A stretch of 64,000 nt of DNA, taken from the NCBI GenBank assembly GCA_951406725.2, contig OX597814.1, forward strand, positions 100,440,001-100,504,000, in the 5' to 3' direction. Both the position numbers and the translations under genes were made by a program. The notes beneath the pieces are model-generated. The model did not search any database and had not been told where the DNA came from. It worked only from the letters and a program-made list of their open reading frames with translations. This DNA is from Octopus vulgaris (lineage: Eukaryota). Numbering within the stretch: the stretch's first letter is position 1; each line of letters begins with the position of its first letter. Below, piece by piece: positions 716 to 56,800 of this stretch.

Positions 716-1058
716 TATAATTCTTTATTATTTGACAAATTTATTGAAATACAAACATTATCATAATGAGATTGTATGACAGTGAAAGGGATACAATGTC
801 AAACACCAGTTTATGCAGCTGTTTATCCTTTCATACGTCTAAACACGCATGAATATTCTGTCTTTTGAAATTGTAGCAAATCCGCTCTAATAACAAATCG
901 GGTCTAAACCGAGAAACAAAGAACAAGTCACCTTCATTGGAATTTATGAGTATGCATGGGATGGGGCATTTGAATTATAACGTCGGATGTAATCAATTGA
1001 ACCACACGCGTATTTATCGTTATGGTAAAATCTGGCGTGTGATTGAGTGGATTTCATC

Positions 1059-1152
1059 CAGATAGTCTTGGCTGACGAGCTACAAATGGATTATTGTAAG
1101 TAATATTACATTTAATTCATTAATAGCGAAACAATTGTCCCAAAATAATCTG
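1059..1152 (+). ncRNA. Type I hammerhead ribozyme, copy 1 (predicted cleavage after GUC, C1139)
   Basis: Stem I CAGATAGTCTTGG/CCAAAATAATCTG; core CTGACGA 1072-1078; stem II GCTA...TAGC; GAAA 1128-1131; stem III ACAA/TTGT; GTC triplet. Confidence 0.9.
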
Positions 1153-1591
1153 TATTTTTGTTATTTTTTATTTGCCCTGTCCGTGTGAGCTAACAGTCGT
1201 ACTGGCTTTCATGGGAAACATGTATTTTCGTGGTTGAAACCTTTTGGATTAACTGGTGCTAGAGTGATCAATATAGTGACCACTCTCTTATATTTATTTT
1301 GTGAAAATATTATAATATGCTATAAAATATTATAATAATCCAGGTTTCTCGTAGCACTAGGCCACTTGGTGTGGAATAAATATACTATTAAATTAGTATC
1401 TAATTCTCTCACCCTTATTAATTAATTATAATTATGCTGCATTTATTTCTAAATGCTGTATTTGTTTTCAGTGAGAGTTTGGCGCGCTGTTAGTTGGGGC
1501 ATTTGAATTATAACGTCGGATGTAATCAATTGAACCACACGCGTATTTATCGTTATGGTAAAATCTGGCGTGTGATTGAGTGGATTTCATC

Positions 1592-1685
1592 CAGATAGTC
1601 TTGGCTGACGAGCTACAAATGGATTATTGTAAGTAATATTACATTTAATTCATTAATAGCGAAACAATTGTCCCAAAATAATCTG
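1592..1685 (+). ncRNA. Type I hammerhead ribozyme, copy 2 (predicted cleavage after C1672)
   Basis: Identical to copy 1, offset +533. Confidence 0.9.
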
Positions 1686-2122
1686 TATTTTTGTTATTTT
1701 TTATTTGCCCTGTCCGTGTGAGCTAACAGTCGTACTGGCTTTCATGGGAAACATGTATTTTCGTGGTTGAAACCTTTTGGATTAACTGGTGCTAGAGTGA
1801 TCAATATAGTGACCACTCTCTTATATTTATTTTGTGAAAATATTATAATATGCTATAAAATATTATAATAATCCAGGTTTCTCGTAGCACTAGGCCACTT
1901 GGTGTGGAATAAATATACTATTAAATTAGTATCTAATTCTCTCACCCTTATTAATTAATTATAATTATGCTGCATTTATTTCTAAATGCTGTATTTGTTT
2001 TCAGTGAGAGTTTGGCGCGCTGTTGGTTGGGGCATTTGAATTATAACGTCGGATGTAATCAATTGAACCACACGCGTATTTATCGTTATGGTAAAATCTG
2101 GCGTGTGATTAGTGATTTCATC

Positions 2123-2213
2123 CAGATAGTCTTTGACGAGCTACAAATGGATTATTGTAAGTAATATTACATTTAATTCATTAATAGCGAAACAATTGTC
2201 CCAAAATAATCTG
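2123..2213 (+). ncRNA. Hammerhead ribozyme, copy 3, damaged (GGC deleted at the stem I/core junction)
   Basis: 'gtctttgacgag' instead of 'gtcttggctgacgag'; the rest of the motif is intact. Confidence 0.7.
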
Positions 2214-2480
2214 TATTTTTGTTATTTTTTATTTGCCCTGTCCGTGTGAGCTAACAGTCGTACTGGCTTTCATGGGAAACATGTATTTTCGTGGTTGAAA
2301 CCTTTTGGATTAACTGGTGCTAGAGTGATCAATATAGTGACCATCTCTTATATTTATTTTGTGAAAATATTATAATATGCTATAAAATATTATAATAATC
2401 CAGGTTTCTCGTAGCACTAGGCCACTTGGTGTGGAATAAATATACTATTAAATAGTATCTAATTCTCTCACCCTTATTAA

Positions 2481-2532
<52 letters not shown>

Positions 2533-53846: not shown

Positions 53847-56800
53847 CAAGCCTTTGGTAAACTTCTGACAATGGAGTGCCAAAAACATTGCACGTTCCAA
53901 CCTCATATAATTACTTTTAGTAATAGAGTTTATGCTTTTGAAACTTGTTATATCAGAAATCTATTTTATTAATCTTTTAATAGTTTAATGGAAACAAATA
54001 AAATTTTGTTTAAAAAAATCAATTTTTAAAAAATGTTAAAATTATAAACAACAGTACAAAATTATAAACAACAGTTACATTAAATTTCTATAAATTAACA
54101 AGAACATTGTCCCTGTAGATTTTTGGTTAATTTCTCAATATCAGGTGCATAATTTGTTACTTAGTTTTAAGCAAGCTTCCGAATGTTGAACTGTCAGACA
54201 ACTTCTTTGTGGACTCAGATTTCATATAGGAAAAAATTTGGTCGCGTGTATATGTTGAGCCAAAGGCTGAAAGTTGAGCATATGAGATTTTCTTCGAAAA
54301 ATTGAATCTTTCAGGCCACGACATCCAGCAATTAATGTTGGCAACGGACTTCTCCAAACAGCTTATTTCAAGAGTTTTTCGTAATTCCACAAATTTTGTT
54401 TTCCACAATTCTGAAGTTGTTAATTCAATCATTTCGATTTCAAAACTATTGTCGTGCATCCACTCAAAAAGTGATAGATCACATGCGTTCGTTTTCAAAT
54501 CAATCAAGTCGGCTTTGATGAGAGAGGAAAATATAGGAGCGTAAGTTTTCAAATCTTTACTTCGCTTGTAAAATTCTTCTTTCAACGTTGTAATATATTT
54601 TTGAAGTTCATTTTTATTAACATTAAATCGATTTGAACAAGCTTTTACATTTGGAAAGTATTTGTAAGTGTTGCTAAGTATATCACGCCAAAAGATATCT
54701 AATTTTAACAAAAATCCTCTCCAGTATTCAAAAAGATCAAGTACTATTTGATCTCTCCCTTGTAAATGCTAATTTAAATCATTCAAGTATTTGCTTATGT
54801 CAGTTAGAAACATCAATTTAAATAACCAGTCTTCATTGTTCAATTCTGGGAAATGTTTCTCTTCAAGAAATATTTTGATATCTTCCAATAATGTTACAAA
54901 TCTGATCAAAACATTAAACCCGACTAAGCCAACGGACATTGCTGTGTCGTGGGAGGTCTGTATATTCGCTGTCCAATACTTGCAGAAGGGACTTGAATTG
55001 TCTGTTAGTCATTGAAGAGAGAGAAACTTTGAAGTTAACTATTTTAACAACAGTCTCCATGATAGAACTCTAGTTTTGTGACGAATATTTTGCAACTAGA
55101 TTTTTTTATTATATGATGCAGTTAAAATTCATTACATTGTGTCCAATATGATTTTCAAGAAGCTTAACAAATCCTTTTTTGCTTTCCAACCATTGAACGT
55201 GCACCATCATTAGTAATATAAAATATTTTATTTATATGAATTGTTTGATTTTCGAAATAATTTACAAATAGTCAGAATGTCCTGTAGTTGTATTGGTAAT
55301 ATGAATCAAAGAACATAATTCTTCGTAAAACGATCATTGTTACTGTATCTTGCAACAATTGCTAGGCGCACCATTTCATTCACGCCAGTACTTCCAACGA
55401 TAGTGACACTGAATGCAGCAGCTTTTTGTAATACAACTTTTTGTTTTATTGTTATATTTTCAGCTATCTCAGTTATACGGTTATCGGTTGATCTTGCAAA
55501 GCTAGTATTTACTCTCTCTTTTACTCTTTTACTTGTTTCAGTCATTTGACTGCGGCCATGCTGGAGCACCGCCTTTAATCGAGCAACTCGACCCCGGGAC
55601 TTATTCTTTTGTAAGCCCAGTACTTATTCTATCGGTCTCTTTTGCCGAACCGCTAAACTACGGGGACAGAAACACACCAGCATCGGCTGTCAAGCAATGC
55701 TAGGGGGACAAAAACAGACACTCAAGCATAGATACGGATACATATATATACATATATACGACGGGCTTCTTTCAGTTTCCGTCTACCAAATCCACTCACA
55801 AGGCTTTGGTCGGCACGAGGCCATAGTAGAAGACACTTGCCCAAGGTGCCACGCAGTGGGACTGAACCCGGAACCATGTGGTTGGTAAACAAGCTACTTA
55901 CCACACAGCCACGCCTGCGCCTTGAATTCGAGGAAGTATTGTTTCAGCTTTTGGTAAAGCACTGAATAAAATTTTAGCACTTCTCAGAAAAGCTTTTTTG
56001 ATAAATTCTCCAACTGTAACAGGTTAACTTTCTCAGCTATACATTGAGCAATTGTGTAACTCTATTCATTGGCTTTATTTTTGGTACCAAGCATTTGAAC
56101 AAAAGCAGAAGTGTATTTTTGTAACTAGAAATAGCTCTTTTTGGCTTCACGTTTCTCATCAGAGTTTTTAAATGCAGTCTGGTGTCTAGTTTGATAGTGT
56201 CTTTGTACACAGCAGAATGCACACAGAGCACGATCATTTTGTTGTACAAATCTATACTCAGTTCTCCAGAAATCTTGAAATGAACGAACGTCAAGCTTTT
56301 GTCTTCTGTTATTTATCTTAGGGCACTATGCATTGATAATTAATATTAACAGGTATATAAATCCTTAAAACAGATTCTACAAATAGAAGTAAAAATTGAA
56401 TAAAAATAATTAGAAGAAAATAAATAGCAAAAAATATAAAAAACAAAAATGATATAAATTTGATGAATAAATTTTCGTAATAAAAATAATTATATTAAAA
56501 TATAAGGTAAGAATAAACAGAAAAAAAAAGAAAGACACTCAAAAATCAGACAACTTGACTCACAAAGGAGGAATTGAAATCAAAGCAAATAAGTACATTC
56601 ATGTATGTTTGTCTTTGAAAACCCTTCTCACTACCGTTTTTTTTTTTTCTGTTTAATACAAAACTGACCTCAGAATGAGATAATTTTAAAAGAGTCTACT
56701 TATAGATGAACCGCAAAGTAGGATCCCCTTTTTTAGAGTTTGTTTATTTAGAATGGCCGCTGTAAGGTGGTTAACTAATTTTAACATATCATGATCTGCA

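Follow-up and report, generated by a model that had tools for sequence, protein, structure and literature searches.

The window examined here, a stretch of 64,000 nucleotides of the Octopus vulgaris genome (contig OX597814.1), holds near its start a tandem array of non-coding units with hammerhead ribozyme motifs. The first-pass annotation, made from the sequence by eye, called it retrozyme-like. The locus raises two questions: what class of element it belongs to, and by what machinery and from what template it was pasted into its site.

The array and its hammerhead motifs

The array (962-2489, + strand) consists of 2.9 head-to-tail, non-coding copies with a period of 533 bp, which bears out the period and copy number first annotated. 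The annotation's nearly identical copies 1 and 2, each with a complete plus-strand hammerhead and no conserved ORF, are likewise confirmed. The two copies differ at a single base (1492/2025), a type I descriptor matches the window at two places on the + strand and none on the - strand (and none of 5000 shuffled units), and no frame of at least 70 aa overlaps the array. Copy 3 has four small deletions, one of which takes out GGC, which is half of proximal stem I plus C3. TRF overlooked the array because its longest period was 500. The features are as follows, with unit positions numbered from the base after the predicted cut.

962-2489 (+): single-armed insertion, 2.9 units of 533 bp, 5′-truncated inside the unit, 3′ end at family end B
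1059-1152 (+): type I hammerhead, copy 1; core 1072-1078, predicted cut after C1139
1592-1685 (+): type I hammerhead, copy 2, no different from that of copy 1 and predicted to be cut after C1672
2123-2213 (+): hammerhead copy 3, broken by the 3-nt deletion and predicted to be inactive
1140-1672 (+): predicted monomer between the two cut sites
1260-1302 (+): hairpin and family 3′ end A (unit position 158-163; also 1830-1835), putative first RT start site
1303-1430 (+): PLE-type 'tail' of about 131 nt between ends A and B, end B being the putative second RT start site
1430 and 1963 (+): end B (unit position 286-291); the real end of the array is at 2489
2486-2531 (no strand): (TA)23 microsatellite, the target of the family, at the 3′ junction of the array

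The 5′ junction is not TA and has no target-site duplication. Two variants, at 1320 and 1470, are private to this locus and fixed there. On both sides of the array (2531-2830 and about 280-715) lie what we take to be tRNA-type SINE-like repeats, neither of which points into it. Elsewhere in the window, a 186-bp SINE-like unit stands in three tandem copies (14467-15022), and a frame of 203 aa on the minus strand (54157-54768) presumably resembles a remnant of a hAT/SPIN-type transposase.

In copy 1 the bulged stem I pairs CAGAT (1059-1063) with ATCTG (1148-1152) and TTGG (1068-1071) with CCAA (1140-1143). The core CTGACGA lies at 1072-1078, GAAA at 1128-1131 and C17 at 1139 (1672 in copy 2). 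Stem II, GCTA (1079-1082) with TAGC (1124-1127), closes an extended hairpin of 49 nt (1079-1127). Stem/loop III is palindromic, ACAATTGT, and stem III has 2 bp in a monomer and 8 bp in a dimer. The predicted structure thus has the type I core CUGANGA, GAAA, NUH and stems I-III. Its local fold gave z = -4.3, with none of 200 shuffles equally stable. Folded as a circle, the 533-nt monomer gave z = -6.9 and a branched shape in which hammerhead stems I and II are formed, with pair probabilities of 0.7-1.0 for all of their pairs except one terminal pair.

Rfam hammerhead models, proposed in the annotation as a check, did not reproduce the motif: the array gave no match at the gathering score, nor at E<=10. 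The long stem II is probably the reason. An intron in the terminal repeat, with ATG and GTAAGT in stem II and an acceptor at 1471, was considered and rejected because the AG at 1470-1471 is a private mutation; the position is C in 157 of 159 segments of the family.

The genome-wide family and its insertion footprint

A search of the genome with the unit, also proposed at first pass for copy number and linkage to PLE ORFs, revealed a dispersed multicopy family. It returned 246 matches with identity up to 99%, from the 40 candidates scored among 953. An exact 29-mer over the cut site has 2,111 copies in the 2.8 Gb genome, and exact junctions of end B with (TA)n number 849. The first 100 29-mers listed are spread over 33 loci in 97 Mb; scaled up, this gives about a thousand loci in the genome. 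We worked with two sets, which together make up about 7% of the estimated loci: set 1 is the 40 best-scoring of the 953 candidates, and set 2 is the 30 loci of the 33 that are absent from set 1. At none of these 70 loci is an ORF joined to the array. The annotation took the near identity of neighbouring copies as a sign of recent activity. That argument does not hold, because the copying event itself produces such likeness; the recency does, on the 99% identity between loci.

The annotation named failure of the hammerhead core to be conserved among genomic copies as evidence against itself. The core is intact in 168 of the 172 segments of set 1. Set 2 was picked via the exact 29-mer, which covers GAAA and the cut site, so that part is unusable for scoring conservation there. 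Among young copies no signal of purifying selection was seen, rare substitutions standing at 0.12% in the hammerhead and 0.11% elsewhere.

Sister families of about 506 bp (family 2) and about 537 bp (family 3), and more distant ones, have a like layout, and ends A and B are kept in families 2 and 3. Counting these two, the related retrozyme-like families number at least four (L121-L140, L141-L160, L074, L269:7930-8430, L273:8950-9270, L185). Across sister families stem I covaries (TTGG/CCAA, TTCGG/TCGAA, ATCACA/TGTGAT, CTACG/CGTAG, CTGTG/CACAG), and N7 of the core varies while the remaining core is kept. Family 3 has no clean pair at the base of stem II, which we count against the explanation favoured below.

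Arrays of the family end at A or at B, 131 nt apart, into (TA)n. Set 1 contains 26 complete inverted two-armed loci, 13 single-armed loci and one interrupted by an N gap (L052), which was left out of the end count. In set 2, BLAST gave 12 two-armed loci, and a thirteenth two-armed insertion lies inside L237 beside a separate single arm. The inverted two-armed form thus accounts for over half of the sampled loci; neither it nor the pair of fixed 3′ ends had been noticed in the annotation. Every two-armed insertion has one A end and one B end (26/26 in set 1, 13/13 in set 2, 39/39 together, counting L062, where the A arm is degraded), and all 39 have the inverted 5′-truncated arm with the tail at one end; the locus in the window is single-armed. 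Among 100 B ends listed of the 849, inspection by eye found no second B end within 10 kb. The 31 single-armed loci all end at A or B, 30 of them into a TA run. Where the two arms meet they overlap by 1-6 nt in 16 of 22 junctions measured (2 or more nt in 10), and L055, with 13 bp, is the one case of a target duplication. Arrays reach 12-14 units.

This is the PLE pattern of a tail at one end. Insertions of endonuclease-bearing PLEs show partial tandems, an inverted 5′-truncated copy, a tail that is often at one end only, and AT-rich or (TA)n targets (PMC8557442; PMC3846280). For an anole PLE, the tail was traced to two internal RT start sites, with both strands nicked and extended (PMC11167929). 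The octopus arrays are alike in the inverted 5′-truncated arm, the one-end tail, the (TA)n targets and the two start sites that we infer, whereas they differ in having no ORF, a tail of 131 nt against 30-40 nt, and multimers in both arms. The anole enzyme showed no strand difference in its start site in vitro (PMC11167929), in contrast to the strict one-of-each rule of the octopus family. We consider it very probable that PLE machinery mobilised the arrays.

The same loci bear on whether the arrays belong, as pseudo-LTR arrays or as truncated ends, to an autonomous PLE outside those found. The genome searches scored the best candidates only, and many Hydra-type subfamilies exist of which part were examined, which favours such a reading. 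It is contradicted by the 70 loci free of a joined ORF, by a unit that closes on itself each 533 bp, and by the 5′ flanks of the 31 single-armed loci, which on comparison shared a single match, SINE-like. The nearest PLE fragment (274 bp, in L069) is a separate insertion beyond a TA run. We regard this origin as highly improbable. At 470-1400 of L069, next to the retrozyme array and in one TA run with it, lies a small two-armed insertion that is Hydra-type, belongs to another family and has the core CCGAAGA.

The template that was copied

The 65 5′ ends that we collected by hand are uniform over the unit (KS p = 0.87), and none lies at unit positions 1-3. Genome-wide, no pile-up was found at the cut site, with five ends there (two of them one-base deletions) and three at a control site. 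Since the cDNA reads through the cut site, the template was either ligated or uncut.

Variants within arrays carry more information. Set 2 has 170 variants that are fixed, being shared by every covering unit of the locus, against four partial and 33 single; in set 1, 18 are fixed, four partial and 48 single. In six set 1 loci (L050, L053-L056, L059) locus-private variants are fixed across both arms, reaching 7 of 7 covering units in L054. Divergence is 0.28% between opposite arms, 0.33% between units within one arm and 2.9% between loci. Three arrays (L056, L060, L242) have mixed haplotypes, which count against a circle and need a multimeric template, template switching or gene conversion. Some variants recur in non-adjacent units of one array: position 247 in L253 (4 of 13 units), position 361 in L244 and position 226 in L069. 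Such recurrence may come from a single template base having been misread repeatedly, from gene conversion or from an error in the assembly.

Haplotype purity is most simply explained by a bottleneck of one unit and subsequent amplification, both of which a circle would supply. The purity and the read-through, both read from genomic copies, favour a monomeric circular template over later satellite expansion. In the expansion model, a route already in print (10.64898/2026.07.22.740005), solo PLE terminal repeats inserted first and then grew as minisatellites by unequal crossing-over. Adjacent units with a common variant in L036 and L046 are what it would leave, whereas the 5′ ends are not confined to any part of the unit, the two inverted arms are each multimeric and resemble one another as closely as units of a single arm do, and no sampled locus runs on into PLE body sequence. 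Hundreds of independent expansions at 99% identity would also be required, and we give this model very little credence.

Copying of a cleaved linear monomer, with the tandem built up as reverse transcription jumps again and again from one monomer's 5′ end to another's 3′ end, is to our judgement equally far-fetched. It would explain purity when one donor dominates, plus the occasional mixed array. It also predicts a pile-up at the cut site, where the ends number 0 of 65 by hand and five against three genome-wide, and untidy unit junctions, in place of which there are 2,111 exact junction-spanning 29-mers.

A more serious alternative, which we still hold unlikely, is a PLE insertion whose template is a linear multimer, transcribed from a donor array and left uncut, so that old arrays are copied into new and the hammerhead acts slowly or can be dispensed with. 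Here too cDNA would be expected to run through the cut site, and a heterogeneous multimer would suit the mixed arrays L056 and L060. For the anole PLE in vitro, unprocessed RNA was the dominant and preferred substrate and hammerhead mutants were still inserted (PMC11167929), which we count against the explanation favoured below. With about 7% of loci sampled, a pure donor array may lie outside the sample. However, a linear multimer alone can neither lengthen arrays nor fix a new mutation in every unit, so an extra amplification step is needed for arrays of 12-14 units and for private variants fixed in up to 7/7 units over both arms (L054). A dispensable hammerhead is also at odds with a core and stem I kept across diverged families. 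On these grounds circular RNA is the probable template.

Some sequencing runs contain the unit; of the 21 listed, none of them on record as RNA, eight were compared with it, all as contigs whose depths are not copy numbers. Two that we guess to be RNA (X1, X17) gave a closed contig of 563 nt (533+30), which fits a circle or a tandem equally, and contigs from runs so guessed contain the majority alleles of the family. Run X18, under another organism label, gave a contig of 135 nt. Of its 20 differences, 14 are listed as A>G and are spread across stem II and A1131; loose ends in the run are the unit with T>C changes (regions 1061-1191 and 979-1029 of the window). The X18 changes, clustered A>G on one strand and T>C on the other in low-depth contigs without matched DNA, hint that double-stranded transcripts, a core adenosine included, undergo A-to-I hyper-editing on both strands. 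No A>G/T>C bias was seen in the genomic copies.

Known relatives and a candidate enzyme

Judged by its sequence, the element is a retrozyme, a new one in a class already known, and the footprint of its insertion is unusually clear. Like metazoan non-LTR retrozymes, it has tandem non-coding AT-rich units with a type I hammerhead each, no LTR, PBS or ORF, and a predicted circle that leaves the hammerhead free to fold. Unlike them, it has the 49-nt stem II that Rfam missed. In the available text on retrozymes there is no mention of fixed double 3′ ends, of arrays with two inverted arms or of (TA)n targeting, whereas the octopus family has all three. The annotation's remark that 533 bp is longer than most retrozyme units is not borne out, published metazoan non-LTR units spanning 51-972 bp (10.64898/2026.07.22.740005). 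In Xenopus many retrozyme families match pLTR by sequence (10.64898/2026.07.22.740005), in contrast to the octopus unit, for which no pLTR match was found. Retrozyme circles have been demonstrated in coral, mussel and axolotl (PMC7229834; 10.64898/2026.07.22.740005), and mobilisation from circRNA by PLEs stands as a proposal in the available text of the same two sources. Of nine Xenopus retrozyme dimers one was cleaved in vitro (10.64898/2026.07.22.740005), which we also count against the favoured explanation. Our search of the open-access literature found no paper on cephalopod retrozymes or two-armed retrozyme arrays; the supplements of Craig et al. (S1/S2), Cervera 2020 and Li 2026, and Repbase, may list cephalopod families.

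Intact PLE ORFs with RT and GIY-YIG are numerous in the octopus genome, where they fall into a two-ORF family, a Neptune-like one and no fewer than five Hydra-type families. The last are assigned by motifs (RWK, DKT, CxCX5C, CxxC, CxH). Their terminal repeats have type I hammerheads with a long stem II, TA targets and tails of about 121, 124, 153 and 180 nt. Two-armed loci of the Hydra-type family H1, selected through end B, have one end of each kind in 13 of 13 distinct loci, leaving out L229 (at a region end) and duplicates. Full-length Hydra-type PLEs (L227:2660-7980 on the minus strand, L286, L278, L279) have frames of 984-1091 aa with long asparagine-rich stretches, and tails of about 120 nt; the clade has been described as <3 kb, which they exceed.

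The other two families were also seen in number. The two-ORF family (L101-L113) is abundant and intact, with ORFs of about 479 aa and 781 aa (RT-GIY-YIG), a degenerate minimal hammerhead and a 40-nt tail. The Neptune-like family (L162-L191) is young and very abundant, with 19,660 candidates and 97-99% protein identity among the 150 scored. It has a minimal hammerhead and shares the TA target, and in L043 and L065 its 3′ end holds nested retrozyme arrays.

The octopus unit is like Hydra-clade PLEs in its canonical type I hammerhead and (TA)n target (PMC8557442), and like L227, L278, L279 and L286 in its long stem II, near-palindromic 8-nt loop III and tail of 120-180 nt. Unlike the unit, Hydra-clade PLEs encode RT and GIY-YIG, and they have no significant sequence similarity to it. 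Against seven PLE terminal regions the unit reached a best z of 2.9, where sister families 2 and 3 gave 32-53. No terminal repeat matching the unit turned up in the GIY-YIG search, the Neptune-like family or the Hydra-type families examined, and among the best-scoring candidates the unit was not found as a flank of an RT and GIY-YIG ORF, nor as a match to such a flank. Two leads were dropped: a 'GTAT..TTCCG' likeness of the unit to the H1b leader, noticed by eye, was not significant (z 2.6), and the DNA upstream of an old relative, considered as a helper source, is single copy. As no autonomous element shares sequence with the unit, the Hydra link is one of architecture; by that analogy, the helper enzyme would more probably than otherwise be Hydra-type.

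Non-autonomous Chlamys PLEs such as MRC1 are a precedent for a protein-free, multicopy, head-to-tail element made by PLEs (PMC8557442). They belong to green algae, their 3′ end is generally similar to that of an autonomous family, and canonical hammerheads are mostly absent from their clade, according to the available text of that paper.

Our favoured explanation, which we think likely, is that 962-2489 is one insertion of a non-coding hammerhead retrozyme, pasted in trans by a Hydra-clade PLE enzyme rolling round a self-cut circular RNA of 533 nt. Read-through transcripts of arrays would self-cleave, probably as dimers via the palindromic loop III, and a host ligase would close the monomers into circles. 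The PLE protein, probably a dimer, would nick both strands of a TA run and prime each from a site of its own, A for one and B for the other. Each cDNA would roll for 0.2-12 units, and the pair would be joined head to head, in many cases across a short stretch of common bases; alternatively one arm alone would survive, as at 962-2489. The retrozyme reading of the first pass has thus been upheld and strengthened by a dispersed family free of linked ORFs, by PLE-type ends, and by purity and read-through that fit a circular template.

A bolder version, which we put forward tentatively and with less than even confidence, has a Hydra-clade enzyme dimer gripping one self-made RNA circle of 533 nt, priming both strands from sites 131 nt apart and rolling on both at once. 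The arrays would then be a genomic record of rolling-circle TPRT, the L253 and L244 variants misreadings of the template, and A-to-I hyper-editing of fold-back transcripts a host brake.

The footprints of this family can be counted, and they separate a PLE circle model from later satellite expansion. The strict rule of one A end and one B end bears on an open question, the origin of the inverted ends and tails of PLEs. A substrate for the bench is also at hand in the 533-nt unit with its two predicted start sites and TA target, and the genome itself supplies intact candidate enzymes.
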